DNA of 64,000 bases from Waddliaceae bacterium. GTDB taxonomy: Bacteria > Chlamydiota > Chlamydiia > Chlamydiales > JABHNK01. The stretch spans positions 833-64,832 of the forward strand of contig JABHNK010000053.1 of NCBI GenBank assembly GCA_018694295.1, in the 5' to 3' direction. Below, piece after piece: positions 9,278-28,901 of this stretch (positions are counted from its first letter, which is position 1; each line of letters begins with the position of its first letter). A model generated the notes under the pieces. It saw nothing but the letters and a program-made list of their open reading frames with translations. It was not told the DNA's origin and did no database searches. The translations under genes and the position numbers were made by a program.

Positions 9278-9343
9278 AATACCTTCCGTTTTCAGTGATA
9301 TATAATGTATATGAAAGCCGAAAAACACGCCATATAAAAGTTA

Positions 9344-12117: not shown

Positions 12118-15100
12118 ATGATAAAATTTTTCGTTAAAAACCCTATTACTACGATAATGTTCGTTTCGATATTCATCGTCCTAGGAATCGTAGCAGCATA
12201 TAACTTGCGTATCGAAAGGACGCCGAAGATCGACTTCCCAATAGTGACGGTTTCGGTGATATATCCCGGAGCGACACCGCTGGAGATGGAGACGTCGGTG
12301 ATCAACAAGATAGAAGACGCTATCGCCGAACTCTCAGAGATAAAGAATATACAAAGTCAGTCGCACGATAACTTCGGATATGTCTTTGTTGAGTTCCTGC
12401 TGTCTTCAGATATAAACATTAAGTTCATCGAAGTAAAAGACAAAGTAGAAGCTCTCCTCAACGACCTTCCTACTGAGATGATGAAGCCCGTCATAGAGAA
12501 ATTCGACCCACTCGTTGAGTCTGTGATGGACCTCGTTGTTATGAGCGATACCAGAGACGAAAGGGCTTTGTACGAGTTCGTCGACAAGAAACTTGTCGAC
12601 CAGTTCTCTTCGATAAAAGGCGTAGCAAATATAGGCCTTTACGGCGGAGAAGAAAGGCAGATACACGTAGACCTCGATCCTTTCCTTATGCAGAAGAACT
12701 ATGTCGACATCCGCGACGTCATCGCCAGCGTAAAAGCTAAAAATAAAAATATTCCAGGAGGCCTTCTTGAAAAAGGGGACTATTCCCTAAACCTACGTTT
12801 CATCGGAGAGTTCGAAGATATCACCGAAATTTCCGAGATGCTTATCGTCTCGAGAGACGGCGGCGCCGTAGCACTTAAAGATATAGCAACAGTATATGAC
12901 GGCGCTAAGAAGGTGGCAACACGAGCACGGCATAACGGAGAGAACTCTGTAGGGATGTCTTTGAAGAAAGTCTCCGACGGCAACGCTATAGAGATCGCCA
13001 AAGAAGTTCATAAGAAGCTCGCAAAACTCGAAGGCATCATCCCCGAAGATATAACGATAACAGTGTCGTCAGATACAACGACGTTTATCGTAGAAGAAAC
13101 AACAGATACAGAATGGGCTATCATCCTCGGAATAATTTTGACGATAGTGATACTATATTTCTTCACAGGAAGCGCAATTACGACATTTATCGCCTCGATA
13201 GTTATCCCTATATCAATAGTGTCGGCGATATTCCTCGTAGACGTCTCGGGTTTCACGATAAACTTCCTGACGCTGCTAGCTATAGCGACAGCACTAGGGA
13301 CGCTTATCGCCAACGCCATAGTAATAATAGAAAACTGCTTGAAACACGTACAGAAAGGCGAAGACCCCGTCGATGCCGTAATAGCTGCGACGAAAGAAGT
13401 GTCGGTAGCGATATTCGCCTCTACAGGGACGAACCTCGTCGTCTTCGCGCCAATAGCTTTCATGGGAGGTATCGTCGGACAGTTTATGCGCTCTTTCGGC
13501 CTTACCGTGATATATGTAACGATATTCTCCTTGATAGTGTCTTTTACGCTGACGCCGATGCTGTGTGGACTTCTGCTTCGCAAGAAAACAACGACGAAGA
13601 AAAAACGTTGGAATCCTCTATATCTCTTCGTGAATATCACAGACCGCTGTGTGCAGTGGCTTCAGAAGGAATACCATATCATCTTCAAGGTGATGTTCCG
13701 TTATCATAAGACCGTTGTCGTCGCAGTAGTTTGTATACTCTTATCGATAAAAATCGTAGTACCATATATCGGAAGCGATTTCCAGCCAAGCTCCGACGAA
13801 GATATGATCGTCGTCTCTATAGAGATGCCCCAAGGGTCTACACTAGAACGTACCCTCGATGTAGTTAAAAACGTCGAAGATAAAGTCTCCAAAATCGCAG
13901 AAGTTACATCGTACCTGTCGTATGTCGGTAAAAGCGGCGTCGAGAATGGCGAGGTCGTAGTAAACCTAGAGCCTTCGGAAGAACGTGAAAGAAGCGATAT
14001 GGATGTCATCGATGAACTCGTACCCTTCGTCGCTATGATCCCCGACGCTAATATAGCGATAAAACGTGGGATGTCGTCGATGCATGGCAGCGACGTCTCC
14101 ATCGACATCTACGGCGACGATATCGATGAGCTCCTAGCAAAAAGCGCTATGATGAAAGAATATATGGAAGATAGCGGATTCTTTAGGTCCGTAACATCGT
14201 CGTATAAGACGCCAAAAAACGAGATACGCTTCATCCCAGACCAAAAGCTTCTCCTTGAAAGCGGACTCCGTGGCATTGAAATCGGTAGCGTAATAAGAGC
14301 GTCGATATATGGCGACGATACAAATAGCTACAAAGAAGCTGGCGAAGACTATACTATCAACGTGAAACTCGACGACAGATACCTCGAAGATTTCGACGAC
14401 ATCGAACAGATAACGATAATATCACGGAAAGGCCTGAGCCCTATAACGGAGCTAGGAGACCTTGTAAGGCGTAAGGCGATGCCGATGATACAACACCGCG
14501 AAGGACAGCGTATCATACAGCTAAACGGTGACCTCGCAAAGTCTACAGCAGGATACGTTATGACGGTGCTCGACGAAGAGTTCTCTGCAATGACGTTCGA
14601 CGAAGGATACGGATATCGTTATGTCGGGAACGCTGAAATGCAGGACGAATCGTCAAGAGAGATAACGAAGGCGTTTATCCTCGCCGTCATCATGACGTAT
14701 ATGCTCCTAAGCGCTATAATGAACTCGCTGATATATCCTATCCCTATAGCATTGTCGGTGGCGACGTCGTTCTCAGGGGTTTTCTACGCGCTGTTTTTCA
14801 TGGGAGAGACGATAAATATTGCGTCGATGCTAGGGATGGTGATGCTCGTAGGGCTCGTCGTCAATAACTCCATACTACTACTAGACTATACGCTAATAAA
14901 AATAAAAGAGGGGACTCCCGTCATAGATGCCTTGTGGTATGGCGTAGAACAACGTTTCAAGCCGATAATAATGACGTCGATAGCGATAATACTAGGAGTC
15001 GTCCCACAACTGTGGTCGGTGATGCTCACCAAGTCGTCGATGGCAACAGTGATGATCGGCGGGATGATAGCATCGGTGATATTCACCTTCCTCTTCACAC

Positions 15101-15177
15101 CAATAGCTTTCTGGTACGCATATAGAGTGAAAACATTCTTCATGAAAAAATCAGCCGAGCCGAAATCGGCTGAGTAG
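12118..15177 (+). CDS. RND efflux transporter permease (AcrB/AcrD/AcrF family)
   Basis: 1019 aa. N-terminus MIKFFVKNPITT, 12-TM/2-loop architecture, C-terminal half repeats the N-terminal half. Confidence 0.93.
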   Translation: MIKFFVKNPITTIMFVSIFIVLGIVAAYNLRIERTPKIDFPIVTVSVIYPGATPLEMETSVINKIEDAIAELSEIKNIQSQSHDNFGYVFVEFLLSSDINIKFIEVKDKVEALLNDLPTEMMKPVIEKFDPLVESVMDLVVMSDTRDERALYEFVDKKLVDQFSSIKGVANIGLYGGEERQIHVDLDPFLMQKNYVDIRDVIASVKAKNKNIPGGLLEKGDYSLNLRFIGEFEDITEISEMLIVSRDGGAVALKDIATVYDGAKKVATRARHNGENSVGMSLKKVSDGNAIEIAKEVHKKLAKLEGIIPEDITITVSSDTTTFIVEETTDTEWAIILGIILTIVILYFFTGSAITTFIASIVIPISIVSAIFLVDVSGFTINFLTLLAIATALGTLIANAIVIIENCLKHVQKGEDPVDAVIAATKEVSVAIFASTGTNLVVFAPIAFMGGIVGQFMRSFGLTVIYVTIFSLIVSFTLTPMLCGLLLRKKTTTKKKRWNPLYLFVNITDRCVQWLQKEYHIIFKVMFRYHKTVVVAVVCILLSIKIVVPYIGSDFQPSSDEDMIVVSIEMPQGSTLERTLDVVKNVEDKVSKIAEVTSYLSYVGKSGVENGEVVVNLEPSEERERSDMDVIDELVPFVAMIPDANIAIKRGMSSMHGSDVSIDIYGDDIDELLAKSAMMKEYMEDSGFFRSVTSSYKTPKNEIRFIPDQKLLLESGLRGIEIGSVIRASIYGDDTNSYKEAGEDYTINVKLDDRYLEDFDDIEQITIISRKGLSPITELGDLVRRKAMPMIQHREGQRIIQLNGDLAKSTAGYVMTVLDEEFSAMTFDEGYGYRYVGNAEMQDESSREITKAFILAVIMTYMLLSAIMNSLIYPIPIALSVATSFSGVFYALFFMGETINIASMLGMVMLVGLVVNNSILLLDYTLIKIKEGTPVIDALWYGVEQRFKPIIMTSIAIILGVVPQLWSVMLTKSSMATVMIGGMIASVIFTFLFTPIAFWYAYRVKTFFMKKSAEPKSAE

Positions 15178-15373
15178 TTCGGAATAGGACTTTACCACGG
15201 AGATCACAGAGGAATCACAGAGTTTTCACGGAGAGCGCCCACTGCGCAGAGCGCGCAGCGGACGCACTTCTCATCATTGCCTGCGGCAGGCAATGATGAA
15301 CATAAATATTGTCATGTTCAGGTGATATATTCCCCAAATGTAAAATGTACTAAAATCTATTAAAGTAGTAGAT
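15177..15373 (+). repeat. A-family structured repeat, copy A1 (long form with palindrome tail)
   Basis: GTTCGGAATAGGAC..CACAGAGTTTTCACGGAGAGCGCCCACTGCGCAGAGCGCGCAGCG..TCATCATTGCCTG/cgg/CAGGCAATGATGA..AAATGTAAAATGTACTAAAATCTATTAAAGTAGTAGAT. Abuts the RND gene stop. Confidence 0.85.
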
Positions 15374-15483
15374 TTTTTAGGCGGTATATGTTTTTAAAAA
15401 ATAAAACAGCAATACTATGTAGTCTTTTTTTTATTGCATTAAAACTGGTTATAAGTTATAATATAGGCTTAAATTTAATTTAA

Positions 15484-15870
15484 ATGAGGTTTAGTATGAG
15501 AATTGAAGCATTTAGAGAATCGGTGAAGGATCTTTCTGAAAATAAATTAAGAGATCGCTATCTGAAAATTAAGGAGAGTAAAGAGTTTAGGACTGAATCG
15601 CTTATCGGGCTTGAAGCAGGATTGGCGGTTGTTACCGCGATTGCGTTGAAAAGCTTTGCGGTTTTATCTGGTACTTTTGCGATAGTATGCGCTTTAAATG
15701 TAGGCGTAGTAATCGGCGTTCTTCTCAAAAATCGTGCAGATGCGCGTAAGGAAAAAATAATAGAAGATGTTCTTAAGGACAAAGGAAGGCAGATAGAGTT
15801 CAAATGGGATAGATTTAGAATTTTGTCGGGTTGGTCTTCACAAATTACGGATATACAAGCGCAAGCATAA
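15484..15870 (+). CDS. hypothetical membrane protein, Inc-like (bilobed hydrophobic domain)
   Basis: 128 aa. A hydrophobic stretch of about 45 aa (GLEAGLAVVTAIALKSFAVLSGTFAIVCALNVGVVIGVLL) sits after a polar N-terminus. Confidence 0.5.
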   Translation: MRFSMRIEAFRESVKDLSENKLRDRYLKIKESKEFRTESLIGLEAGLAVVTAIALKSFAVLSGTFAIVCALNVGVVIGVLLKNRADARKEKIIEDVLKDKGRQIEFKWDRFRILSGWSSQITDIQAQA

Positions 15871-15918
15871 TAAAAACATCCTCAAAATCAGTTGGTTATT
15901 AAGACGAACGTTGATCGA

Positions 15919-16041
15919 GGTTCGGAATAGGATTTTACCACAGAGATCACAGAGGAACCACAGAGTTTTCACGGAGAGCGCCCACTGCGCAGAGCGCGCA
16001 GCGGACGCACTTCTCATCATTGTCTGTGGCAGACAATGATG
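15919..16041 (+). repeat. A-family repeat, copy A2 (short form)
   Basis: Same core as A1. The hairpin allele is CATCATTGTCTG/tgg/CAGACAATGATG. Confidence 0.85.
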
Positions 16042-16059
16042 TACTGACCTTGTACTACA

Positions 16060-17418
16060 TCACTTCCATGCTCGAATGATCGCTGATGATTCATGTGGCT
16101 TCATAACATGAGTATTAAATAAATAGTCGATTGTCTTGCGGCTTGTTGTAATGTTTACTTCTGTAACACTCGCTTCCGAAAAACCTAATTTCGTCATAAT
16201 TTCTTTTTTTGTCTTATCATGATCTTGCATAAAGCTAGAATAACGCTCGTCGCCAGAAGGAAGAAGCGGAGGATGTGGCGGGTGTTCTGAGGCTTTTTCT
16301 AGCAAAAACTCTGCTTGTTGCTTGAAAGCATCCTCAAACGCCGATTCTATCTCTTCCCTATGAAGCGTATCAATAACGGTGTCTCCAGGCTCTGCAGGCT
16401 TGTAAAAGTCACAAAATCCCTCGAGAGGGTCTAGCGCCATGCGATACTCTTCTTTATGACCACTAGCGAGTGCCTTTATATTCCGCTGCCTTACGCGTTC
16501 TCCCAAAATATGAAATGGGCAATAGGCCAAGCCTATTTTTAGTGGAGCATAGTTGTTTTTTTCTACCATGCGCGCTAAGAACGCCTCTTCATCATAAGGA
16601 TCAAAAATGACCGACGTCCCTTCTCTTGATTGTTCAATAACAGCCTCATCCATTTTTCTTGTGTACTCTTCTTCACGCTTGATATCATATTTTTCCTTTT
16701 TTGCCGCTTTCAAGGCTTCTTGTGCATCTTTTAGCACTTCTTTTGTAATGTCCGGCTTCCAACGCACTCTATTAGCAAATAGTGCACAAGCAATATCTTG
16801 GTGTTCCATTGCTTGAGCCATACGAGAATATAGTTCTGGAGTCTGATTTCGAACCAAATTAGCATCTCGTGATGCCGGGTCCATCATCGTTTTAAGCTCA
16901 CCGAGAGCTTCTTTAGCGTCCCTTAGCGTCTCTTCCGAAATATCAGGCTTCCAATGCGGTTCAAGGCCTATTCTTATCGCACGGCCAATATCTACAGGCT
17001 CTGTTGCCAAAATTATTTTCGCGTATAGTTCTGGAAACTCTGCTCGCGCTGTTTCCGCGTCTTGTAATGGAAAGTCTATGTCCATGCCAGATTCTTCCCA
17101 TTCAGGAGCTTCCTTCCTTAGCTGGCGTATTATCGATGACTTCCCCGCTGTAGAGTTCCCCAAAAGAACAAATATCTTTCCTTCACTATATTGGCGCAAA
17201 TGTTGAAGGGCGTATTTTTCTGCTTCAAGTGATCGGCGAAGCTGATGGGAAATGATTGCCTGAAAAATGGTGGCAATTTTTTTTACAGGCGCTTGTTGTA
17301 TAATCCTTGGATTATAACGTACTATTTGCTGATCACCCATTTTGCCAGTTTTTGATTGGCGGGATGGTGTCGACCCTGGTCTAGTTATACCTTGTCCTTC
17401 TATTTCTGGTATTGGCAT
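16060..17418 (-). CDS. chloramphenicol-phosphotransferase-like P-loop protein with internal duplication
   Basis: KIFVLLGNSTAGKSSIIRQLRKEAPEW resembles the CPT N-terminus (LNGGSSAGKSGIVRCLQ..PEPW). Walker-B-like VIFDP. GGAGG RBS. Confidence 0.7.
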   Translation of the reverse strand: MPIPEIEGQGITRPGSTPSRQSKTGKMGDQQIVRYNPRIIQQAPVKKIATIFQAIISHQLRRSLEAEKYALQHLRQYSEGKIFVLLGNSTAGKSSIIRQLRKEAPEWEESGMDIDFPLQDAETARAEFPELYAKIILATEPVDIGRAIRIGLEPHWKPDISEETLRDAKEALGELKTMMDPASRDANLVRNQTPELYSRMAQAMEHQDIACALFANRVRWKPDITKEVLKDAQEALKAAKKEKYDIKREEEYTRKMDEAVIEQSREGTSVIFDPYDEEAFLARMVEKNNYAPLKIGLAYCPFHILGERVRQRNIKALASGHKEEYRMALDPLEGFCDFYKPAEPGDTVIDTLHREEIESAFEDAFKQQAEFLLEKASEHPPHPPLLPSGDERYSSFMQDHDKTKKEIMTKLGFSEASVTEVNITTSRKTIDYLFNTHVMKPHESSAIIRAWK

Positions 17419-17497
17419 TGCTTAACCTCCACTTATATAAATGCGCTTATCGTATATAATCGTGATTTTAAAGAGAAAGTCAAGTGAAGTTTATTAA

Positions 17498-17684
17498 GAG
17501 TTCGGAGCTCGGAATAGGATTTTACCACGGAGATCGCAGAGGACGCACAGAGTTTTTCACAGAGAGCGCCCACTGCGCAGAGCGCGCAGCGGGCACACTT
17601 CTCATCATTGCCTGTGGCAGGCAATGATGAATATAGATATTCCCCAAATGTCAAAATGTACTAAAATCTACTAAATTAGTAGAT
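17498..17684 (+). repeat. A-family repeat, copy A3 (long form with palindrome tail)
   Basis: Core as in A1. The tail ends in the perfect 19-bp palindrome ATCTACTAAATTAGTAGAT (17666..17684). Confidence 0.85.
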
Positions 17685-17726
17685 AATTGGGCGAAAATGC
17701 CCGCTTTTCATGCGAAATTCTTCGTA

Positions 17727-17767
17727 AAATGTGTCAAAACCTACTAATTTTAGTAAAATTAGTAGAT
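17727..17767 (+). repeat. 40-bp AAATGT(G)TCAAAA..TTAGTAGAT repeat (D3)
   Basis: Direct repeat of 17646..17684 and 18087..18125. Contains the palindrome TACTAATTTTAGTA and the half-site TTAGTAGAT. Confidence 0.7.
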
Positions 17768-17775
17768 TCTTTGAT

Positions 17776-18087
17776 ATGGTCAACATAAAGGTAATCACCG
17801 AGGCGATACAAGAGCTTAAAGATCAAATTCGTGAAGAGGCAGAAAAAAGCAAAAAATTTCGGCAAGGGCTGATGACCTTTGATCCCGAGTTGAATATTCG
17901 TCAATCGGCGTTACTTTTTCATGCTATGAAGCATCCTTCTGAGGTTTTTTCTATAAAGGCTCACCAGACGACAAATCATATATCTTATCAGACGGCAAGG
18001 ACAGACCTTCTAGAGCTGGCAGATAAGGGATATCTGAAACAAATCAAAAAAGGAAAAACCTTTTATTTCATATCTGCCGATAATTGA
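17776..18087 (+). CDS. Fic-family C-terminal winged-helix fragment (stand-alone wHTH or gene remnant)
   Basis: The NIRQSALLFHAMKH..ISYQTARTDLLELADKGYLKQIKKGKTFYF pattern is typical of the C-terminal DNA-binding-like domain of long Fic proteins. There is no Fic core. The GTG at 17731 lies inside a repeat, so I prefer the ATG at 17776. Confidence 0.5.
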   Translation: MVNIKVITEAIQELKDQIREEAEKSKKFRQGLMTFDPELNIRQSALLFHAMKHPSEVFSIKAHQTTNHISYQTARTDLLELADKGYLKQIKKGKTFYFISADN

Positions 18088-18125
18088 AATGTCAAAATCT
18101 ACTAAAAGCTACTAAATTAGTAGAT
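18087..18125 (+). repeat. 40-bp palindrome-bearing repeat (D4)
   Basis: AAATGTCAAAATCTACTAAAAGCTACTAAATTAGTAGAT. Its first base (18087) is the last base of the wHTH ORF stop codon. Lies 200 bp upstream of rhs. Confidence 0.7.
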
Positions 18126-18324
18126 AAATCGTCGCGGATATATGGTGACAAGACGACGAAATAAAAAGTAACATGTTTCATATTAAAAAAGAGTAATAAA
18201 ATTTTTATTACGCTCTTGAGTGCTTCTGAGCCGTTTTTTAAAAATATCGATCGACACTTTTTCCTTTATCATAATGTGATTAATAGCATAATCTCTGCTT
18301 CGCACAAAATAATCGGAGCTTGCT

Positions 18325-21300
18325 ATGAAATGGTTTATTTCTCTATTGTTCTTCTGTAATTGTTATGCTGCTGACCCCAATACAATTCTCGACAATGTCA
18401 ACATCTCCACTGGCTCCATTAACTACAAACAAACGGATCTCGTTGTCGATGCTATCGAACCCTTGATCATCGAACATTCATATCAAGGCACTGAAAAAGC
18501 TGATGTCTTCTTCCCCCACCTTAAAGCAAAGATAGGATTAAGCTCGAATAACATAGAATTTTTCGCTTGTGAACCTAGCGGTCTTGCCCTTTATTATCTA
18601 TGGAATCGCTCAGCATCGTTTGATTGCTGTCCACAAAATATCCCAGGCTTAACAAACACTTCAGAAAATAATCTTTCAGCACGGAATAATCCTCTCAATA
18701 ATTGCGCTACTTTTAATCCTGGTGGCCATTCAGTGCGCGTTACTTTGCCTGACGGAGGATTCCGAGCATATCGCCTAAACTCAGATTCCTGCACTGAGAG
18801 AGACCTTCATTTAACGATGGAAGTATTGCCAAACGGCAATCAGCGGCACTATGAATATGATGGACAGAGGCGTCTCGCCCGCGTTAGCACAAAAAACTGT
18901 TCGGGAGCGATAGAATATGCATGGGCGAAATTTTCGTATGATGGTGACGACGTCGTTGTCGATACTAGCGACGGTCAGCAAGCCACCTATCACTTTATAA
19001 AACACAAACACAAAGTTTTTTTAGATACCGTTTCTATCCCAGAACGGCCGAAAATACAGATATCTTATCACGAAGGTAAAGAAAGCCTTTTACCTCAAGA
19101 AATCTCTGTTGATGGTCAGCCTGTCTTTCATGTCGATTACAACCCCGGAGAAACACGCATTTCGTCGATGGAGCTTTTCATCGAAAAAGACAAACCCTCT
19201 GTACCATTCCGCACTTTCTCCTATCAAGATGGCAAGACCGAAAGTCGTGACGCTGCGGGGATGCTCACAACACACCATTTCGACAAAGATTCTCGCCTTG
19301 CTAAGGTCGATAATTATAAAGAAAACGACGAGCTTTTTTCTAGCCAGCATTTAACGTGGGAAGGCGCTAATCTTAAAGAAAAGGCGCTTTTTTCTGCCTC
19401 CGGGGATTGTATTTTCTCTCGTGAGTTTTCCTATGACGATCTTGGTAATGTTACCGAAGACATCTTTCATGACGATTCCTTAGATACCACATACAGCAAA
19501 AGTTTTTCTTATTCTTCCGATGGCAGAAACATGCTTCTCAAAGAAACCGAAGACTCCGGGCTTATATCAACTTTCGAATATCTTCAAGGAACCGATCTGA
19601 TTTCAAAGAAACTTATCGCCGGCCCCGAAGGCACCTTCCAGCGCTATTTTTTTGTATATGACGACAACAATCTATGCGTCGCTGAAATCTCCGACGACGG
19701 CGATGCCAAAGGCATCGATGATTTTAGTGGCGTCTCCGAGCGTAAAATATGTAGAATTTCCCGCTCGGAAGAAAACTTTCTACCCATAACCATCCAAGAA
19801 CTGTATTGGGATGGCAAAGAAATTCCTTTGTCGACGCGGAAAATTTCTTACAACACCGAAAATAAAGTTGTCCGTGAAGATGTTTACGATAGCGATGGCA
19901 TATTTTTATATTCACTCCATACGGATTATGACTCTCGAGGAAACATATCCAGGAAAACAGATCCGCTAGGGCGTGAGAGCTTATATGAATATGATGACTT
20001 TGGACGCTTGATCTTCGAACAAAAAGCAGGAAAACCATTTTCAAGACGCTACTACTACGATCTCGCTGGAAGGTGTATCTTCTCCGAAGAATATGATATG
20101 GAAGGAGACAGACGTGCGGTGTCGACGCATTACGACACTCAAGGGCGTCCGATTTCTATTACTGACGAACATGGTAATATAACAGAAAACACCTATGATG
20201 CTTTCGGTAATTGTATTGAAACAAGAGCCCCTGACATCCTTGATGAAAATGGAAACATATATTCTCCAGTCCTTAAAAATGCTTTCGACGAGCAGGGTAA
20301 CGCCATAAAGTTATATGGCGCTGATAACAGTGTTGTCGAGACGAGTTTCAATGCCCTCGGTGGCCCTATAACAATAAACCATCCTGATGGCACCGTCACC
20401 AGAAACACCTATCTTCCTAATGGTTTGCGAGAAAAAACTATTACTGACGATGGCTTGGAAACACGTTTTACCTATGATATCCTTCAACATGTTATCGCAC
20501 AAGAAACCTTCTCTCCCGAAGGCATTTGTCTTGTTCGTGAAAGCTGGGAATACAATACTTTTCACATGCTGTCGCATACAGACATCGAAGGACAAAAAAC
20601 AGTATACTCCTATGACCGTGCAGGAAGGAAGACAGCAGAACAGTGTGGAGATCATCGCTTACAATTCTCTTATGATTCCAGAGGATATCTACTGTCGACT
20701 TTTGATGTTTCTAGCGGAATAACGCATACACAGAGTACCGACTTGGCAGGAAGAAAGACCGAAGAATGGATAGAGCAGCCTAATGGCAACGTCGAAGACC
20801 ATACGATATTTCATAACACATATTATGATAAAATCTTCCGTGTCGTTCGTGGCGACGCTGTCGACGAAGTCGAATATGATGGACGCGGAAGGAAAGTCTT
20901 ACATATCGACCCTCTTGGCGCTAAAACAACGACCTCATACGAAGACAACTACTGCAACGGTTTGGGACAAAACGTTCTGCGTACGACAACGACGATGCCT
21001 AATGGTATGAGCCTCGTTGAAACCTATGACACCCTGTCTCGCGTAATAAAGATAGAAAAGAAAGACCTCGAAAAACAGGTTCTTCACAAAGAAGAGCTTT
21101 TTTACGACCGTTCTAGTAATATGGCTATGTCTGTCGTCACGATTTTCAAGGATGATGCGCCGCCTAGGACAATTTCTACGTGCTTTGTCTATGATAGTAT
21201 GCATAGGCTTATTTCTAAAACAGAGGCAGACCAAAGGACGACGTCATATTCTTATGATTCTATAGGGCGTGAAATCTTACGTAAGAAGCCTGACGGCGTA

Positions 21301-23436
21301 GAGATTATGTCTTCATACGACTATCTTGGTAGGGTGACGGAACTACGTTCGTCTGATGGTTCGGTACAATATCGTTATTCCTATGACGAAGGCATGCAGC
21401 CGACGCGTATAGAAGATATTGTTGCAGGAACAACGCATCATTGTTCTTACGACAAAGAGGGAAATCTCATCTTCGAAGCAAACGGATGCGGTCTTGTCCT
21501 TCAGTGGACGTACGATGCTGTGGGGCGTCCATTATCGCTAAAACTTCCCGACGATACCCTCATAGAGTATTCTTATGAAGGCTCTCATCTGTCGGAGGTC
21601 TCACGGCCGACATATTCCCACAGATATCTTTCTTTCAACGAACATGGCCACATCGCCGAAGAGCAGCTTATCGGTGATATGGGCGCTAAGAGCACTTCAT
21701 ATGACATTCTTGACCGCCCGTTCTTACAACGCTCGTCATCTCATGAAATTTCACAGACATTCAACCTCAACGGTGAAATCGAAACGGTTACTTCTTCGTT
21801 GATAGGTTTCAAGGACTATGAACACAACCTTCTTTCGTTTCTTGTTAAGGAAGACGAAGAAGAGTATCAATACGATTCTATTGGGAACCCTGCGGAGATC
21901 CCTGTCGACGACCTCAACCAGCTTCAGAGGGAGGATCTTTCCTATGATTTGAACGGGAACCTCCTTACGAGAGAAGACCTGTCTTTCAGCTACGACGCTT
22001 TAGACCGCCTTGCCACGATAGCAGGTCCTAATGATACCATAACATATACTTACGACCCTTTTGGTCGTATGCAGTCTAAGACAACGAGCGAAGGGGTGAT
22101 ATATTTCATCTGCGATCACGATTCGGAGATCGGCGCTGTCGATGCAGAAGGCACTATCATACAACTTCGCGTCCTTGGTGATGGCATTAACAGTGAAAGT
22201 GGTGCTGCTGTTGCTCTTGAGCTTCGTGGAGAGGTTTATGTTCCAGTCCATGATCTTAGAGGAAACTTAATCGCTCTGTCCTCTCTCGATGAAAAAGATG
22301 TAGTGCAGACGTATGATATGAATGCTTATGGGCAATGTGATATATCCGACCCACTGTCGCCGTGGCGTTTTTCTTCCAAACGCCATGAAGAGGGAGGCCT
22401 AGTTTGTTTCAGACATCGTTTCTATGATACTACTCTAAAGCGCTGGCTTACTCCAGACCCTGCAGGGAATATTGATGGCTCAAACCGCTATGGTTATGTC
22501 CTCAGCAATCCCGTCAACCGCCTCGACCAGTGGGGGCTTTATGAAACTCCTATTTGTATTGAATCTCCATATGTTGGAGCCGCAAGCTTCCGAGTCACTT
22601 TTTCATTCGATATGAGCTCTATGATGAATGCAGGTACATTTGAAGAGCAGGTTAGTTCTTTAGGCCTTGTTATGCAACATCTCATAGTCAACAATGATGA
22701 TGTACACTACCTGCGTAGCAGCGCTACAGAAATTGCTCAAGCAAAGTCATATGAACTACAAAAGTTTTTCTCTGCGGCCTTGGAATTCTCAAATGAAGGC
22801 GAGATTCTCTTGACGTCTTTAACCAACGGTATTGGTAATAAACCACACGATTTTACATCATCGATTAAAAGTGTAAATAATATTTTTCATAACGACGTGT
22901 TCATGATGGGGCTCTTCAACGCAACAGAAGGTCTTAAAACGGATCTAAACAGGGTGTTCGTTGAAGGTCAGGGATATGATACTCCGATAGTCATTATGAT
23001 GAGAACGGAAATTCTTTTTAATGCACGTCTGTGTGAGAGAGTGGGAGATAACACCTATTTTTTAAAAATCCTCCACAGCGAAGCAGGCTTGATATACTGC
23101 AATGCTTTTAATGGGATGACTCTCGAACAGCAAAATCTTGTCAAAAAACATGCTTTGGTTGCTGCTTTTGGCCCTGCCGAGCCAGTTCCCAGATCTTCCG
23201 CTTATGAAGCGATAAACATATATTCTGAGAAAGACAATATTACAGGGGGCGCCGGTAGAAACAAAGATCCTAATGACTATGATATTCGTTTCGTTGAATG
23301 TATTTCATCGTGGTCTGAACATAATTTGCTTGGCTATGCAGATCATGCGTATCTTGGGTCGACATATCAAGAAGCTACTAGTGATATGATAAAACATTTT
23401 GATGCTAAATATAAGTTTTATCGCTATAATAAATAA
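18325..23436 (+). CDS. Rhs/YD-repeat polymorphic toxin with Sec signal peptide and novel C-terminal domain
   Basis: 1703 aa. Signal peptide MKWFISLLFFCNCYA. Dozens of YD repeats (YDDLGN, YDSRGN, YDDFGR, YDTQGR, YDPFGR and others). Core terminus RYGYVLSNPVNRLDQWGL at about aa 1405, then a 298-aa tail. Confidence 0.9.
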   Translation: MKWFISLLFFCNCYAADPNTILDNVNISTGSINYKQTDLVVDAIEPLIIEHSYQGTEKADVFFPHLKAKIGLSSNNIEFFACEPSGLALYYLWNRSASFDCCPQNIPGLTNTSENNLSARNNPLNNCATFNPGGHSVRVTLPDGGFRAYRLNSDSCTERDLHLTMEVLPNGNQRHYEYDGQRRLARVSTKNCSGAIEYAWAKFSYDGDDVVVDTSDGQQATYHFIKHKHKVFLDTVSIPERPKIQISYHEGKESLLPQEISVDGQPVFHVDYNPGETRISSMELFIEKDKPSVPFRTFSYQDGKTESRDAAGMLTTHHFDKDSRLAKVDNYKENDELFSSQHLTWEGANLKEKALFSASGDCIFSREFSYDDLGNVTEDIFHDDSLDTTYSKSFSYSSDGRNMLLKETEDSGLISTFEYLQGTDLISKKLIAGPEGTFQRYFFVYDDNNLCVAEISDDGDAKGIDDFSGVSERKICRISRSEENFLPITIQELYWDGKEIPLSTRKISYNTENKVVREDVYDSDGIFLYSLHTDYDSRGNISRKTDPLGRESLYEYDDFGRLIFEQKAGKPFSRRYYYDLAGRCIFSEEYDMEGDRRAVSTHYDTQGRPISITDEHGNITENTYDAFGNCIETRAPDILDENGNIYSPVLKNAFDEQGNAIKLYGADNSVVETSFNALGGPITINHPDGTVTRNTYLPNGLREKTITDDGLETRFTYDILQHVIAQETFSPEGICLVRESWEYNTFHMLSHTDIEGQKTVYSYDRAGRKTAEQCGDHRLQFSYDSRGYLLSTFDVSSGITHTQSTDLAGRKTEEWIEQPNGNVEDHTIFHNTYYDKIFRVVRGDAVDEVEYDGRGRKVLHIDPLGAKTTTSYEDNYCNGLGQNVLRTTTTMPNGMSLVETYDTLSRVIKIEKKDLEKQVLHKEELFYDRSSNMAMSVVTIFKDDAPPRTISTCFVYDSMHRLISKTEADQRTTSYSYDSIGREILRKKPDGVEIMSSYDYLGRVTELRSSDGSVQYRYSYDEGMQPTRIEDIVAGTTHHCSYDKEGNLIFEANGCGLVLQWTYDAVGRPLSLKLPDDTLIEYSYEGSHLSEVSRPTYSHRYLSFNEHGHIAEEQLIGDMGAKSTSYDILDRPFLQRSSSHEISQTFNLNGEIETVTSSLIGFKDYEHNLLSFLVKEDEEEYQYDSIGNPAEIPVDDLNQLQREDLSYDLNGNLLTREDLSFSYDALDRLATIAGPNDTITYTYDPFGRMQSKTTSEGVIYFICDHDSEIGAVDAEGTIIQLRVLGDGINSESGAAVALELRGEVYVPVHDLRGNLIALSSLDEKDVVQTYDMNAYGQCDISDPLSPWRFSSKRHEEGGLVCFRHRFYDTTLKRWLTPDPAGNIDGSNRYGYVLSNPVNRLDQWGLYETPICIESPYVGAASFRVTFSFDMSSMMNAGTFEEQVSSLGLVMQHLIVNNDDVHYLRSSATEIAQAKSYELQKFFSAALEFSNEGEILLTSLTNGIGNKPHDFTSSIKSVNNIFHNDVFMMGLFNATEGLKTDLNRVFVEGQGYDTPIVIMMRTEILFNARLCERVGDNTYFLKILHSEAGLIYCNAFNGMTLEQQNLVKKHALVAAFGPAEPVPRSSAYEAINIYSEKDNITGGAGRNKDPNDYDIRFVECISSWSEHNLLGYADHAYLGSTYQEATSDMIKHFDAKYKFYRYNK

Positions 23437-23449
23437 AAAAGGTTTTTCT

Positions 23450-24088
23450 ATGAAATATTTACTGCTTTCCTTATGTTGTTCTTTATTATTTTTAACGCTC
23501 TATGCGAGTGATAATTCCTATTTTGGTCGTGATCCCGAGCATTATAAAGAAGGTAATAAGCTCATCAACGAGATGTTTAGAGAGTATGCAGAGCGTGTAT
23601 GCAAGCAATATGATTTGAAGTGCGAAGGCGACATGGGGGGCTTCCCGGGGCAGATTCAATCTCTCGGCGGAGTATTTGGCGTCAAGCGGCTACTTGCTGT
23701 GGATGAATTGCGCATTCTCATCCTTAAACTTCTTGCAGACTTTCAAGATACTATAAACAGAAATGAAAAAATCAGACCATTTCTCGCAGAATATCCATTT
23801 GCTGCCGATCGCATCACTATTATGCTAAGAATTTACGATGGAAATAAAAGACCGTCACCTGATGAAATTTCTCTTGCTTTTTCATCTCGAGATCATATTT
23901 CATATTGCTATTCTGATCCAAAGAAATCTATTTTCGAGGATAAAAAAATCCAAGAACCATTCGAAGAGGCATGTGAAAAGGCTGGCATCGATGTTGCGAC
24001 GATATCCCCGATATATTCATTATATGATGATACAGGCCGCTTTCTTAAAACGGAAAAAAATGATAACCCCACTACCAAAAAGAAATAA
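23450..24088 (+). CDS. secreted paralogue 1 (candidate Rhs immunity protein)
   Basis: 212 aa. MKYLLLSLCCSLLFLTLYA signal peptide. 13 nt after the rhs stop. Paralogous to the next two ORFs. Confidence 0.7.
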   Translation: MKYLLLSLCCSLLFLTLYASDNSYFGRDPEHYKEGNKLINEMFREYAERVCKQYDLKCEGDMGGFPGQIQSLGGVFGVKRLLAVDELRILILKLLADFQDTINRNEKIRPFLAEYPFAADRITIMLRIYDGNKRPSPDEISLAFSSRDHISYCYSDPKKSIFEDKKIQEPFEEACEKAGIDVATISPIYSLYDDTGRFLKTEKNDNPTTKKK

Positions 24089-24097
24089 GACGAAATC

Positions 24098-24736
24098 ATG
24101 AAATATTTACTGTTGTTCCTGTGTTTATTCTTTTCGTCCCATATGCTTTATGCAAACGATGAATATTATCATTTTCGCACACCAGATAATCGTCAGGAGA
24201 GCGATAAAGTTATCAACGAAATTTATGAGGAATGTGTAGAACGCCTATGCGAAAAATATCATTTACTGTATCTAGCAGACCTATATCACTTTCCTGAAAA
24301 AATAGACTTCTTAGGCGGGGCATTCGGCATGAAGCGCATGATTTCCGTTGATGAATTGCGGCCTCTTGTACTAGCGTTACTTGCAGATTTTCAAGAGGCG
24401 ATAAACAACAACGAAAAAATCAGGCCGCTCCTCGTTGAATATCCATTTCCAGCGGATCGTATCACTATTATGATAGGTCTTTGTGACGGGGACAAACTAC
24501 CTCCTCATGATGAAGTTTCCAATGCTACTTCAGAGAAGGGTTTTCTTTGCTACAGGTTTAGCGATTTAATCAAAATAGTTCAAGGGAAGGAAGAAATCAA
24601 AGAATCCCTTGAAGAGGCGTGTGAAAAGGCTGGTATAGACCCTGCGACCATATCTCCGATATATTCGCTATATGATGATACAGGCCGCTTTCTCAAAAGT
24701 GAAAAAAACGACAATCCCACTACCCAAAAGGAATAA
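24098..24736 (+). CDS. secreted paralogue 2 (candidate Rhs immunity protein)
   Basis: 212 aa, colinear with paralogue 1. The shared C-terminus is EEACEKAGID.ATISPIYSLYDDTGRFLK.EKNDNPTT. Confidence 0.7.
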   Translation: MKYLLLFLCLFFSSHMLYANDEYYHFRTPDNRQESDKVINEIYEECVERLCEKYHLLYLADLYHFPEKIDFLGGAFGMKRMISVDELRPLVLALLADFQEAINNNEKIRPLLVEYPFPADRITIMIGLCDGDKLPPHDEVSNATSEKGFLCYRFSDLIKIVQGKEEIKESLEEACEKAGIDPATISPIYSLYDDTGRFLKSEKNDNPTTQKE

Positions 24737-24745
24737 GGTGAACTT

Positions 24746-25462
24746 ATGAAATATTTACTGTTATGTCTACCACTTTTATTTTCAACGCTCTATGCCGATA
24801 AATATGCTGATTATGAAGCCTTTAGTAAGAAGGGTGATGCCGCTATGAAGGAAATCGAGGAAGCGTTTGCCAGAGCAGATGGTGATATTGAAGCTTTTTG
24901 TAAGGAGGGCATAGGGGCTATGGATGAGATGCACAAAGAGTTTGAAGAAATAGAAGAGAGAGCAAAAGCTTATTACAAAGATGCCGACATAGATATTAAT
25001 GAATTCTACAAAAAATTTACAGAGCATGTTTATAAAAAATATGAAATGAAATCCGAGAGCAATATAGAAGAATATTTTAAAGAAACGGGCAAGCTTGGCT
25101 CATACTTTAGAACGAACCGCCTATTTACAGTAGAGGAATTGAGGATGCTTATTCTCAATCTTATTGCAGATTTTAAAGATGCTAATGAAGCGTTCAAACA
25201 ATATCCTGGGAAACCCACATATTTTGCGGAGTTTATTTCTTTTCTCATAATCTTTAACGATGATGAGAATGCTTCTCGTTATGATTGTGTTCCATTAGTT
25301 TTTCTGTGCAACGGCAATATCATGTACTTTGATTTAGAAGAAGATGACGAAATAAAAAGTGAAGAATTTCTTGAAGAGGCTTGTGAAAAAGCGAATATTG
25401 ATGTTGCGACGATCTTTCCTATATCTCCGCAAGATGTTGTTTTGCCAGAGCCATTAAAATGA
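24746..25462 (+). CDS. secreted paralogue 3 (divergent, with acidic coiled-coil insertion)
   Basis: 238 aa with the same signal peptide start. Shares the VEELR.LILNLIADF and EEACEKANIDVATI blocks. Confidence 0.65.
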   Translation: MKYLLLCLPLLFSTLYADKYADYEAFSKKGDAAMKEIEEAFARADGDIEAFCKEGIGAMDEMHKEFEEIEERAKAYYKDADIDINEFYKKFTEHVYKKYEMKSESNIEEYFKETGKLGSYFRTNRLFTVEELRMLILNLIADFKDANEAFKQYPGKPTYFAEFISFLIIFNDDENASRYDCVPLVFLCNGNIMYFDLEEDDEIKSEEFLEEACEKANIDVATIFPISPQDVVLPEPLK

Positions 25463-25465
25463 TAT

Positions 25466-25644
25466 GGTCAGGCCGAACATTCAGACATTCGGGGAGCTGA
25501 TAATCCAGACACGACAGTATCCCTGTTCGTCATTGCCTGCCACAGGCAATGGCGAGAAGCGTGTTCGCTGCGCGCTCTGCGCAGTGGGCACTCTCTGTGT
25601 AACTCTGTGTCTCTCCGCTCCCTCTGTGGTAAAAATCCTATTCC
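25466..25644 (-). repeat. A-family repeat, copy A4 (inverted)
   Basis: Reverse complement of the A core (..GCGCTCTGCGCAGTGGGCACTCTC..GTGGTAAAAATCCTATTCC). Begins 3 nt after the paralogue 3 stop. Confidence 0.85.
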
Positions 25645-25664
25645 CGTGGTAAAGCCATACTCTT

Positions 25665-26306
25665 CTATCGCAAATCGCAGGGCTGGCCCATTTCATCATA
25701 AGCTTCAATATCGCCGGTTTCAAGATCGAAATACCACGCATGTATTGAGAGCGTTTTTGCTGCAACACGCTCGGCAATCCAAGGGAAGGTTTTGAGGTTT
25801 TTTAACGACAACAGCAACGATTCCTTTTCGCAATGGCGTGCCTGTTCTTCTATAGAGTCGTTGGGATATTGTTCTACAACATGTTCTTTGGCAGGCTTGG
25901 CGATATCCATCCATGTATCGATAAAGCTTGAGGGGTCTTTATCATCGGGAGCTTCGAACAAAGAACGTATTCCTCCGCAATGGCTATGTCCCAAAATAAT
26001 GATATCGCTTATCTTTAAAACCTTCACACCGTATTCCAAGGCAGCACTGGTGCCATGATGATGGAGATCGCTTTCGAATGGAGGAATCAAGTTGGCGATA
26101 TTACGTACGACGAAGATATCGCCAGGATCACATTCTGTTAAAATAGCGGGATCAACGCGCGAATCGCAACACGCTACAATCAAAACCTTGGGGTTCTGTC
26201 CCTCATGGAATAAGTTTTCAGATAGAGGCTTCTCTTCGAAGTTTTTTTTGCGAAAACGCTCATATCCTTCGATAAGCGGTGTTATAGCAGAATCATTATC
26301 AGACAT
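25665..26306 (-). CDS. beta-class carbonic anhydrase
   Basis: Zinc ligand motifs CCDSRV and HSHCGG. Confidence 0.9.
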   Translation of the reverse strand: MSDNDSAITPLIEGYERFRKKNFEEKPLSENLFHEGQNPKVLIVACCDSRVDPAILTECDPGDIFVVRNIANLIPPFESDLHHHGTSAALEYGVKVLKISDIIILGHSHCGGIRSLFEAPDDKDPSSFIDTWMDIAKPAKEHVVEQYPNDSIEEQARHCEKESLLLSLKNLKTFPWIAERVAAKTLSIHAWYFDLETGDIEAYDEMGQPCDLR

Positions 26307-26332
26307 AGCGCTCTCCTAATTGTTATTGTAAT

Positions 26333-26505
26333 GGGCAAGGCCGAACATTCGGGGAGCTGATAACCCAGACACGACAGTATCCCTGTTCATTATTGTCTGC
26401 CACAGACAATGATGAGAAGCGTGTTCGCTGCGCGCTCTGCGCAGTGGGCACTCTCCGTGAAAACTCTGTGATCTCTGTGTCCTCTGTGGTAAAAAATCCT
26501 ACTCC
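26333..26505 (-). repeat. A-family repeat, copy A5 (inverted)
   Basis: Near-identical to A4. Its terminal AATCCTACTCC contains the ftsK stop codon (CTA at 26499..26501). Confidence 0.85.
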
Positions 26506-28901
26506 TTTTCTACGCTCTCTTCTACGCCGCTATCAGCGAGGACATTAGCGAGGACTTTCCGTGGTCTGCTTCCGTCGGCGGGGCCTACGATGTTATTTTC
26601 TTCCATCACGTCCATTAGGCTTGCTGCTCGTGCGTATCCGATCTTTAGTTTGCGTTGCAGGAATGTCGTTGATGCCGTTCCTGCGGCTTTAACAGTCTCT
26701 ACGGCGTCGTAATATAGGCTATCGAGTTCGGCGTCGTTGCTGCTGAGTAGGGCTTCGGTGAAGTGGCTAGCTTTTTCTTTGAAAGATTTTATCAGGTAGT
26801 TAGTAGGTGCTTGTTTTGTTACGAATTCTATTACTTTTGCGATATCTTCGTCGTGGACGAGCGGACCTTGTGCGCGCGTTAATGCTGAGGTGTCTGGTGG
26901 AAGGAAAAGCATATCGCCATTACCGAGGAGTGCTTCTGCGCCGGTCTCGTCGAGAATTATCTGGCTGTTTATCCTGCTAGCGACTTTGAACGCTATCTTT
27001 GCGGGGAAGTTCGCCTTTATCAGCCCTGTTATTATCTCTCGCGAAGGACGCTGTGTTGCTATTATCACGTGTATCCCTACGGCGCGGGCCATCTGTGCAA
27101 GGCGTGCTATTGGCATCTCGATATCGTTGCTAGAGATCATCATAAGGTCGGCGAGCTCGTCGATGATACAGACGATGTAGTGCATCTTCTTCGGTATCGT
27201 TATTTCCAGGGAATCTTCGAATTCAGCATTGGCGGGTCTGTGGTTGAAGGAGGCGAGGTTTCTTACGCCTACCTGTCTGAACACTTCGTAGCGCCATTCC
27301 ATCTCTTTAACCATCCATTTCAGCGCGGTACATGCTTCGTGTGGTTCTGTTATTACTGGTGCCACCATATGTGGGATATTGCTGTATGGTGTGAGTTCTA
27401 TCTTCTTGGGGTCGATCATCACGAGTTTTATCTCGTCGGGTTTGAAGTTCATCAGTATCGTCATTATTATGCCGTTCATACATACCGATTTCCCTGAACC
27501 TGTAGCGCCAGCGATGATGAGGTGTGGCATCTTCGTAAGGTCGCTGTTTATCGAGGCTCCGCTGACGGACTTCCCAAGGAGTAGAGGGATCTTAGCCTTT
27601 TTTGATTGCTGACGGTATGCTGCGAGCATGTCTTTGAAAGACACTTCTTGCGGAGAGGCATTGGGGATCTCTATGCCGACGGCGGCCTTCCCAGGGATTG
27701 GTGCGATTATGCGTATCGACCGCGCACGAAGGTTTAGGGCGATGTCGTTGGCAAGGGCTTTGATCTTCTGGACTTTTACGCCGACGGCAGGGTGTACTTC
27801 GAAAGATGTTATCGTAGGGCCACAGTTTATCTGTCCGACTTTCGCTTCGATGCCGAAGCTTAGCATCGTCTCTTCGAGGACTTCTGCCTGCTGTCTTAGG
27901 CCTTTCTTCAAGACTGACTGGTCGCCTTTCTTGGCGTCGGAGATTAATGATATAGGGGGCAGCTTGTAGTTGCTGTAGTCGTATTCTTTTGATTCTTCGT
28001 CTTCGACGACGTCGACATTTTCTACCTTCTGTGTTGGTAGTGTAGCGGTGATTGCACTCTTTGGAGGCTCGGGGATAGGCTCTTCTTCGAGAGGGAGGTC
28101 GTCATACTCTTCTTCTTCGAAGGTGTCGATGGCGATGTCGTTGGAGGTGTTTAGGGGGATCTTTTTCTTGAAACGAAACTTAGGGATTGTGATCTTTATA
28201 GAGCGTAGTGATTCCCAGGCTTTCTTACAGAGCGCCCACGTTGCTATTCCTAGCTTTTTGCAAGACCATAATATTCCGTTCCACATCACGATGAATGGCG
28301 CCATTAGGCTGGTATGTGTCATAAGGAGCAGTGATGTTAATGTCGTCGTAGAGAATATCAACGCCGTACCGACGTTGCTTAAGATACGCTGTAGGTTGAT
28401 GACAGGAAGGTCGCGGAAGATGTAGTAGAAAGGTACGCCACCGAGGTTGTAGCGTGTCGCCGTGTATGAAAAAGCCTGTGGACGTGGGATTTTCTGCGAA
28501 TACACCATACCGTCGAACCATAGTGTTGCCTGTGGGTATGCTTCGGCGACGAGGTTTAGAAGTATGCATGCCGATGACAGCAAGATACCAAAATAACATG
28601 TCTTTATGCCGAGCCTAGCGATAGGTCTATTGATAAGAAGGTGTATGCCTACCCATGCCAGAAAGATGTTGATGATATAGCTTCCCAAGCCGAAAAGATA
28701 CTGCGACACCCAAGCAACGGTATAGCCCATAAGGCCTAGCCAGTTGGAAGAGTCGTTGCCATCGGTGAAACTCAAAAGACTCAATAGCAGTATGGCGTCG
28801 AGAGTTAAGACGATAAGGCCTTTTACCTCATGGTGAGGGTGTAGAACCTTCTCGTTGTTATATTTCTTGCTTTTCTTTTTATTCTTATTTTTTTTGTTCA
28901 T
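26499..28901 (-). CDS. ftsK: DNA translocase FtsK
   Basis: N-terminal TM domain, Walker A IAGATGSGKSV, C-terminal gamma wHTH (LQRKLKIGYARAASLMD). Confidence 0.95.
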   Translation of the reverse strand: MNKKNKNKKKSKKYNNEKVLHPHHEVKGLIVLTLDAILLLSLLSFTDGNDSSNWLGLMGYTVAWVSQYLFGLGSYIINIFLAWVGIHLLINRPIARLGIKTCYFGILLSSACILLNLVAEAYPQATLWFDGMVYSQKIPRPQAFSYTATRYNLGGVPFYYIFRDLPVINLQRILSNVGTALIFSTTTLTSLLLMTHTSLMAPFIVMWNGILWSCKKLGIATWALCKKAWESLRSIKITIPKFRFKKKIPLNTSNDIAIDTFEEEEYDDLPLEEEPIPEPPKSAITATLPTQKVENVDVVEDEESKEYDYSNYKLPPISLISDAKKGDQSVLKKGLRQQAEVLEETMLSFGIEAKVGQINCGPTITSFEVHPAVGVKVQKIKALANDIALNLRARSIRIIAPIPGKAAVGIEIPNASPQEVSFKDMLAAYRQQSKKAKIPLLLGKSVSGASINSDLTKMPHLIIAGATGSGKSVCMNGIIMTILMNFKPDEIKLVMIDPKKIELTPYSNIPHMVAPVITEPHEACTALKWMVKEMEWRYEVFRQVGVRNLASFNHRPANAEFEDSLEITIPKKMHYIVCIIDELADLMMISSNDIEMPIARLAQMARAVGIHVIIATQRPSREIITGLIKANFPAKIAFKVASRINSQIILDETGAEALLGNGDMLFLPPDTSALTRAQGPLVHDEDIAKVIEFVTKQAPTNYLIKSFKEKASHFTEALLSSNDAELDSLYYDAVETVKAAGTASTTFLQRKLKIGYARAASLMDVMEENNIVGPADGSRPRKVLANVLADSGVEESVEKE

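Follow-up and report, generated by a model that had tools for sequence, protein, structure and literature searches.

Intergenic repeats of a chlamydial Rhs toxin island share their head with a GxxExxY nuclease-gene element

We analysed a 64,000-nt stretch of DNA (the window throughout) from a marine Waddliaceae bacterium of the Chlamydiota, sampled in Saanich Inlet (GenBank assembly GCA_018694295.1, contig JABHNK010000053.1, positions 833 to 64,832 of the forward strand). At 15177-26505 it holds a block of genes around an Rhs toxin locus, and the spacers of this block carry five copies, A1 to A5, of a structured repeat of ~165 nt (repeat A). The head of this repeat aligns with both ends of a small element on the same contig that encodes a protein of the GxxExxY family, and inverted heptamer arrays flank GxxExxY genes in other phyla as well. 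We infer that repeat A derives from the gene-bearing element. The explanation we favour, at a probability of about 0.6, is that the A copies descend from the GxxExxY element family as derivatives with one head and no gene, and that they accumulated in an Rhs toxin island that is stable and specific to this lineage.

Repeat A has a modular build (Table 1). Its head of ~45 nt, (T)TCGGAATAGGATTTTyACCACrGAG followed by CACAGAG heptamers at 9-11 nt spacing, leads into a 24-nt core, GCCCACTGCGCAGAGCGCGCAGCG, that folds into a GC-rich hairpin with a bulge; next come a 13-bp hairpin without mismatches (TCATCATTGyCTG-yGG-CAGrCAATGATGA) and a tail terminating in CCCCrAATGT. The core is exact in A1-A5 and has no other occurrence in the window; 100 shuffles gave an expectation of 0. 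Both hairpins are kept among the copies (95.6% of cells pair, and three pairs are changed on both sides), and the flanks of A1-A5 have no similarity outside the element. Repeat searches recovered the five copies in the order, and with the three plus and two minus orientations, described in an earlier sequence-only reading of this DNA. That reading was also right in two further respects: the block is bracketed by inverted repeats (arms 15181-15341 and 26345-26505, 161 nt, 78% complementary), and the genes for a 128-aa protein, a 452-aa protein and a carbonic anhydrase each lie between direct A copies.

Two genes for GxxExxY PD-(D/E)XK proteins, flanked by the A head in inverted orientation, lie on the window's contig, at distances of 2.2 and ~10 kb from the window's left end. 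The encoded protein of ~125 aa matches TIGR04256 (E 5e-46) and Pfam PDDEXK_3 (PF13366), and a search of PDB sequences returned no match to it; by tblastn, the window itself contains no GxxExxY coding sequence. The head of A1-A5 aligns with both ends of the complete element (L022 7799-8475), as well as with the second copy (L022 1-303), and an A profile matched the element ends with nhmmer E-values of 2e-6 to 6e-5. In the complete element a CTGGGGGA..TCCCCCAG hairpin comes after each flanking head. With a profile made from 19 of this genome's heads, exactly seven heads were detected in the window, namely those of A1-A5 and two solo heads. The core had 0 matches in viral contigs and the head pattern five, of which only one (L018) is a true relative; against plasmids the head consensus gave only marginal matches. 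Short tandem TATAGCG/GGATAG motifs occur beside tRNA genes in the window (3900-3958, 40682-40734 and 44538-44568) and also immediately outside many heads, for example in L007, L008 and L009, which suggests that the element ends grade into simple-repeat arrays.

Gene-less relatives of intermediate length were found in the same genome. A scan of metagenome contigs with the core returned seven loci, corresponding to four distinct places. The long variants of A, at least six copies on four contigs with several per contig and with unrelated flanks, have the same head and 24-nt core, followed by a different, well-conserved ~130 nt. Three of the six end in a GGGGGTCTGGGGGA..TCCCCCAGCC hairpin and an inverted head identical in type to the right end of the gene-bearing element, and these three thus have terminal inverted repeats at both ends, which the A form in the window lacks. 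In this chlamydia the family comprises a ~680-nt gene-bearing form, a ~290-400-nt gene-less long form and the ~165-nt A form. Long variants adjoin adk, a PAP2 gene and aroC, an SCPU/usher operon that faces ahcY and a tRNA gene, and a gene of the amino-acid-kinase type (UMP-kinase-like). The adk and aroC proteins belong to the same four NCBI accession series of metagenome-assembled genomes (MAGs) as the window's carbonic anhydrase, so at least the contigs that encode them (L006 and L008) belong to the window's genome. Reading frames through the core, read directly, differ between the A form and the long variants; the core is therefore not coding, and its interpretation as a small open reading frame (ORF) was dropped. 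ORFs of 60-73 aa do run across A copies, at 17433-17654(-), 15838-16020(-) and 25464-25652(+), and are repeat artefacts because the frame is not conserved between variants.

The link between gene and repeat extends across phyla. The GxxExxY family has more than 8000 matches, and the best 120, which are 57-69% identical to the protein of this genome, include proteins of Chloroflexota, Planctomycetota, Bacteroidota and Acidobacteriota. We sampled six loci outside the Chlamydiota genome, from these four phyla and two further genomes (L024, L025, L026, L027, L028 and L031). Inverted TT(T)CACC[AG]C[AG]GAG/CAC[AG]GAG arrays stood on both sides of the gene in all six, and in 7/7 loci when the present genome is included; TTTCACCACAGAGGCACAGAGAACACAGAG ... 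CTCTGTGTTCTCCGTGCCTCTGTGGTGAA is an example of such a pair. The heptamer unit has lineage variants (CACGAAG, CGCGGAG), two loci (L024 and L025) carry tandem or nested extra inverted arrays, and a gene-less array pair occurs in an unrelated contig of 60% GC. All six outside genes sit in short spacers between co-oriented neighbours (leuC|leuD, moxR|DUF58, ABC|ABC, after cas2, before ligA and ftsX|ftsX), and this placement in apparent operons suggests that they may be expressed by read-through transcription. A limited literature search found no description of the repeat strings or of the gene-repeat association (string matches were all primers) and only incidental mentions of GxxExxY and PDDEXK_3; such an absence is not proof of novelty.

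Among the A-type copies that could be scored, 8 of 9 have the head turned toward the 3' end of a gene (one-sided binomial ~0.02). The TAG stop codons of ftsK and of a dCMP-deaminase gene lie inside the rTAGGA of a head, and the TAA of lpxD stands immediately 5' of CCACAGAG. The opposite orientation of A at the two ends of the block follows from this preference together with the convergence of acrB and ftsK, and the direct pairs at the 128-aa and carbonic anhydrase genes are accounted for in the same way. It does not apply to the 452-aa gene between the direct copies A2 and A3, where A3 is the exception: it lies ~90 nt from the start of the 452-aa gene and is the only copy with its head toward a gene start. 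The sequence-only reading had placed every copy within a few nt of a gene end, which is accurate for A1, starting 0 nt after the acrB stop, and for A5, whose head contains the ftsK stop, and too strict for A4 (~18 nt), for A2, which is 50 nt away from the 128-aa stop on its left and ~12 nt from the 452-aa stop on its right, and for A3.

Such placement could also be expected if the copies were functional host elements on transcripts (3'-end stabilisers, processing sites or terminators) kept by selection. Consistent with this, four of the five window copies are co-oriented with and directly 3' of the upstream gene, the hairpins are kept with compensatory changes, A1 has a folding z of -4.5, and the core is invariant in A1-A5 and in five of the six long copies aligned, although the long-variant loci were found by an exact-core search and the invariance there is partly a product of selection by that search. 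However, no A copy contains an intrinsic terminator or U-tract, and the opposite strand folds as well as or better than the strand of the repeat itself (for A5, -4.5 versus -2.4). In searches of Rfam 15 only tRNAs reached the gathering score; over 15100-18350 even a cutoff of E 5 brought no match, a long variant had only chance matches below the threshold, and a search for sigma-70 promoters in A returned a single weak promoter-like match, in A5. A3 is not behind a co-oriented gene, and a head in common with a cross-phylum gene-bearing element fits a mobile origin better. We therefore regard a host function on transcripts as unlikely.

We compared the block among contigs from MAGs named 'Waddliaceae bacterium' at NCBI and from metagenomes of the Saanich Inlet oxygen-minimum zone; the MAGs found include GCA_018646305.1, GCA_018656665.1 and GCA_018669495.1. 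The carbonic anhydrase and acrB genes were each found on at least 23 contigs (23 were read per gene) from several Saanich Inlet samples and three MAGs, and all contigs read for either gene had a single gene order. Five carbonic anhydrase contigs were 100.000% identical to the window over 15665-36306. Of four acrB contigs fetched, three were identical to the window, and that of the third MAG differed by 3 single-nucleotide polymorphisms in 10.4 kb (acrB to rhs) and had the same architecture despite them. No inversion, deletion or duplication isoform was seen among the contigs compared. Two contigs from independent assemblies (L035 and L036) end at window positions 15275 and 15270, inside A1 and within the 64-nt run that it has in common with A2, as is characteristic of assemblies that break at a repeat. 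The A repeats thus fragment short-read assemblies, and the link between GxxExxY genes and heptamer arrays accounts for a class of intergenic repeats at which assemblies break and from which spurious ORFs arise.

These comparisons bear directly on the proposal of the sequence-only reading that the A copies partition the block into single-gene cassettes and serve as substrates for its inversion, and for the deletion or duplication of single genes. Homologous recombination or a site-specific enzyme encoded elsewhere would be the agent. The arrangement would allow it in principle, with direct repeats around three genes and an inverted bracket; direct neighbours have identical runs of 31-64 nt; and a nuclease gene that carries the A head is found 2 kb beyond the window. 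Moreover, over 21 kb the sole structural difference between two strains (L022 and L023) is the right arm of the GxxExxY element, which indicates that the repeat family is dynamic and that recombination among its members does occur. Against it stand the one architecture of the block in all contigs read, where the sole anomalies were the assembly breaks inside A1, the identical runs of just 24-28 nt between inverted copies, the mixed orientation of the genes, the A-type copies that elsewhere flank housekeeping genes, and the absence of attC-type core sites and of an integrase. As the earlier reading had noted, no recombinase was found, and no integrase or transposase either, among the ORFs scanned in the window, a scan that omitted the last four predicted ORFs (59509-62978). 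The partition into mobile cassettes thus found no support, and we consider it very improbable that the A copies are recombination sites of this kind; their use as recombination substrates is possible but unproven.

A third alternative is that a single ancestral insertion gave rise to all five copies through local duplication and gene conversion alone, during assembly of the island and with no further mobility. Neighbouring copies are indeed the most alike (A1/A2 94%, A1/A3 ~91% and A4/A5 89-92%, versus 78-85% between the two groups), and the hairpin variant TTGTCTG..CAGACAA, common to A2 and A5 and hence found across the groups, is a mosaic pattern typical of gene conversion. We take these two observations to mean that local copying and gene conversion shaped the copies. 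As a sole explanation this is nevertheless improbable: the flanks of the copies have no similarity beyond the element, and the further copies with unrelated flanks on other contigs mean that a dispersal mechanism is needed for the family as a whole.

Several observations weigh against derivation from a mobile GxxExxY element. For a PD-(D/E)XK protein of 125 aa, transposase activity would be purely hypothetical, and PDDEXK_3 is entered as 'Unknown' in a survey of the superfamily (PMC3424549). No consistent target-site duplication was seen in the flanks inspected, where the outer ends are degenerate, and no empty site or insertion polymorphism was found for any A copy among contigs that are 99.97-100% identical and have A1-A5 in the same places. 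Alignment of the head with the reverse-complemented tail, evaluated against shuffles, revealed no significant second inverted head at the tail end of the window copies; RNAfold had suggested that the tail is a degenerate inverted head, a candidate we rejected as the alignment scores do not exceed those of shuffles. The core is unchanged while its surroundings diverge by 10-20%, which could indicate a selected host function. Finally, the examined portion of the genome amounts to ~110 kb only.

Under the favoured explanation, elements of the GxxExxY family would settle in short spacers with the head against a gene 3' end, often abutting or supplying the stop codon. Five copies would have accumulated in this way in the spacers of the Rhs island between the convergent acrB and ftsK genes, the likeness of neighbouring copies would reflect local copying or gene conversion, and the opposite orientation at the two ends would be a by-product of the insertion habit. 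Only the co-conservation of gene and repeat suggests that the GxxExxY nuclease might act on the heads or recognise the heptamer arrays, and it is likewise by deduction that the family would have spread by some form of transposition, or moved at all. The block would then be a stable Rhs toxin island decorated with relics, and not a demonstrated cassette-shuffling device.

A broader and more tentative proposal, to which we give somewhat less than even odds, is that GxxExxY genes with heptamer-array inverted repeats constitute a cross-phylum class of minimal selfish elements, of which the A repeats would be non-autonomous offspring in an obligate intracellular bacterium. The ~125-aa nuclease would recognise CAC[AG]GAG arrays, and insertion would take place sense-wise behind stop codons in operons. 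If so, breaks made by the nuclease at the heads could turn the A-rich Rhs island into a recombination hotspot, and the cassette idea would return with a new mechanism. The gene-repeat link offers a testable role for the very common, uncharacterised GxxExxY family, namely that of protein partner to a tiny element that is mobile or homing. The usual picture of Chlamydiae is one of few repeats and little mobile DNA; the marine chlamydia studied here has at least three forms of one repeat family and several other repeat families.

Table 1. Features of the block and of the repeat family. Coordinates are window positions unless a contig (L022) is named.
Feature	Coordinates	Strand	Description
A1	15177..15342	+	Head, 24-nt core hairpin (HP1), 13-bp hairpin (HP2), tail; directly 3' of acrB stop
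A2	15919..16048	+	Head, core, HP2; no tail; 94% identity to A1
A3	17507..17648	+	Head, core, HP2, shortened tail; between divergent genes
A4	25484..25646	-	Full copy, ~18 nt 3' of carbonic anhydrase stop
A5	26344..26507	-	Full copy; ftsK stop TAG (26501-26499) within head (GGAGTAGGA)
Solo head	9339..9385	+	No core; type of the right end of the GxxExxY element; core-gene spacer
Solo head, degenerate	3843..3889	-	Core-gene spacer
GxxExxY element, complete	L022 7799-8475		~2.2 kb left of window; inverted A heads on both sides
GxxExxY element, second copy	L022 1-303		~10 kb left of window; A head shared
acrB-type RND transporter	12118..15177	+	ACR_tran, E 2.5e-208; left flank, convergent with ftsK
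128-aa membrane protein	15484..15870	+	Single long bilobed hydrophobic stretch
452-aa P-loop protein	16060..17418	-	Rare family, 169 clusters in 1.84 billion
Winged helix-turn-helix (wHTH) fragment, 118 aa	17731..18087	+	Match to SoFic-type Fic proteins confined to their C-terminal winged-helix end
Rhs/YD-repeat protein, 1703 aa	18325..23436	+	RHS_repeat E 9.1e-53, TEN_YD-shell
Three tandem paralogues (212, 212, 238 aa)	23450..25462	+	Presumed immunity proteins
Beta-class carbonic anhydrase	25665..26306	-	Pro_CA, E 3.5e-47; between A4 and A5
ftsK	26499..28901	-	Right flank
ATCTACTAAATTAGTAGAT repeat, ~48 nt	15335-15382, 17646-17693, 17729-17776, 18087-18134		Perfect palindrome within the repeat
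Long-hairpin repeat	28930-29005, 62934-63009		Two inverted copies, 93% alike; aligned arms 76 nt
Third repeat family, ~140 nt	8337-8474, 29302-29453, 52346-52479		All in core-gene spacers

The block runs in the order acrB, A1, 128-aa gene, A2, 452-aa gene(-), A3, wHTH fragment, Rhs gene with three paralogues, A4, carbonic anhydrase(-), A5 and ftsK(-), in agreement with the sequence-only reading. Its accessory appearance, pointed out by that reading, was borne out by its low GC content (0.39-0.44, compared with ~0.45-0.50 in the flanks) and by lineage-specific or rare genes (Rhs with its paralogues, the SoFic-like remnant and the 452-aa family). Repeat A is enriched in it: among spacers of at least 130 nt, full A copies occupy 5/6 inside the block and 0/18 outside (hypergeometric ~1.4e-4, hand-computed). 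The family is not tied to accessory genes, since A-type copies stand elsewhere beside the housekeeping genes adk, aroC/PAP2, the UMP-kinase-like gene and ahcY/tRNA.

The Rhs protein contains the core-end motif ..DPAGN..LDQWGL, followed by ~300 unannotated residues that are presumed to be a toxin domain and that had no match in Pfam, NCBIfam or PDB sequences. The three paralogues behind it have no family match and are presumed, from their position, to be periplasmic immunity proteins. The two that were translated (24098 and 24746) start with a signal-peptide-like MKYLLL, and the first has the same ATGAAATATTTACTG start at the DNA level; in this region (22540-25462), exported paralogues of this appearance would fit an Rhs toxin acting in the periplasm with periplasmic immunity. 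The architecture of the 128-aa protein is compatible with that of chlamydial Inc proteins, with no family match behind it, and the 452-aa protein had no match in a search of PDB sequences. As only the C-terminal winged-helix end is matched, the SoFic-like ORF is probably a pseudogene remnant. The window has an intact gene with a Fic domain outside the block, at 51068-52159(-); the idea that the fragment is a copy of it was dropped, the two sequences having no similarity. The ATCTACTAAATTAGTAGAT repeat is confined to the 3' side of A1 and the surroundings of the SoFic-like remnant; it could serve as an operator or mark one end of a further small element.

The exact core had 0 matches in 185,579 reference genomes, which implies that the species is not represented there. 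A protein search seeded with FtsK returned distant Chlamydiota and Bacteroidaceae only; the nearest relative is only 58% identical, and the closest relatives are 57-58% identical. Two of the closest ftsK relatives keep the upstream genes (TPR protein, ComEC and BacA), their downstream genes are unrelated, and no A-like sequence was found at the ftsK loci of the closest relatives. This synteny is compatible with, and not proof of, a lineage-specific block. A gene for an Hc1 histone-like protein at 37489 agrees with assignment to the Chlamydiota.

The window contains other repeats as well. The region of the long-hairpin repeat spans ~110 nt and reads GGCATGGTTCATTTT...GGTCAGGC..GCAAAGATG..CAGGCCAGACC...TGAACCrTGCC; one copy lies upstream of the ftsK start beside a tRNA-His gene and the other at a gene end near 62978, and it could be another miniature inverted-repeat transposable element (MITE) or a structured RNA. 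Members of the third family contain several GC-rich palindromes (TTTTGCTTTGyCGCGGG...CCCTTTGTCGCGGGTGGCGGGGCGCGGAGCTCCGCCAC).

Several known systems resemble parts of this arrangement. As in an array of integron cassettes, single genes are separated by structured repeats of about 60-170 nt. In contrast to integrons, the ORFs scanned include no IntI, genes as well as repeats occur on either strand, the genes do not form promoterless units that all point one way, and repeats occur beside housekeeping genes too. The attC core sites RYYYAAC/GTTRRRY are absent at the A ends (TTCGGAATAGGA... and ...CCCCrAATGT), and the nearest candidate, GTTCGGC, fails RRR. Neisserial intergenic mosaic elements and minimal mobile elements are modular repeats around variable genes between conserved flanks. 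The block likewise combines modular repeats with variable genes held by conserved flanking genes, but the sequences are unrelated and the strains gave no sign of exchanging cassettes.

Another comparison is with free-standing homing endonuclease genes and with the intervening sequences of 23S rRNA, which have a small ORF between inverted repeats. The GxxExxY loci resemble them in that a very short gene, coding for a nuclease or small protein, is wedged between co-oriented conserved genes, and in that the inverted repeats can pair into a stem once transcribed. Multiple heptamer arrays and numerous derivatives that lack the gene are atypical of those systems, and homing by GxxExxY proteins is only conjectural. 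For the toxin genes of the island, the counterparts are the polymorphic Rhs loci, in which a YD-repeat shell with a variable C-terminal domain is followed by small paralogous genes (PMC3482391). The present locus has the same succession of YD-repeat shell, C-terminal domain after the core end and small paralogous genes, and differs in that the C-terminal domain and the paralogues are without a family match and the paralogues look exported.

As for mobile DNA without genes, bacterial MITEs (the Correia elements of Neisseria, ERIC and RUP) are intergenic elements of 100-400 nt with hairpin potential. Repeat A resembles them in being short, non-coding, multi-copy and dispersed, with unrelated flanks and a position near gene ends; the long variant has terminal inverted repeats, and a gene-bearing relative with the same ends exists. 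It differs in that the form in the window is one-headed, no target-site duplication was found, and the partner gene encodes a nuclease and not a recognised transposase. A simple MITE label is thus weakened for the window form, for which no significant second inverted head, no target duplication and no empty site were found; with a single head, the window copies are not classical MITEs.

A further likeness is to the REP/REPIN-RAYT systems (REP, repetitive extragenic palindromic; RAYT, REP-associated tyrosine transposase) of Escherichia and Pseudomonas, where structured repeats at gene 3' ends, many of them gene-less copies, accompany a small master gene flanked by inverted copies. Here, too, structured intergenic repeats stand at gene 3' ends, a gene is flanked by the repeat in inverted orientation, and gene-less copies are scattered. 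The features of REP, an imperfect GTAG-headed palindrome of about 35 nt, or of bacterial interspersed mosaic elements with RAYT were missing, with no GTAG-headed palindrome and no Y1_Tnp match among the scanned ORFs. Instead, the repeat is a CACAGAG heptamer array behind TTTyACCAC, and the protein is a GxxExxY PD-(D/E)XK protein of ~125 aa with a predicted activity, not an HUH/Y1 RAYT. A further difference is that the GxxExxY gene is 57-69% identical across phyla, which suggests that it has spread horizontally.

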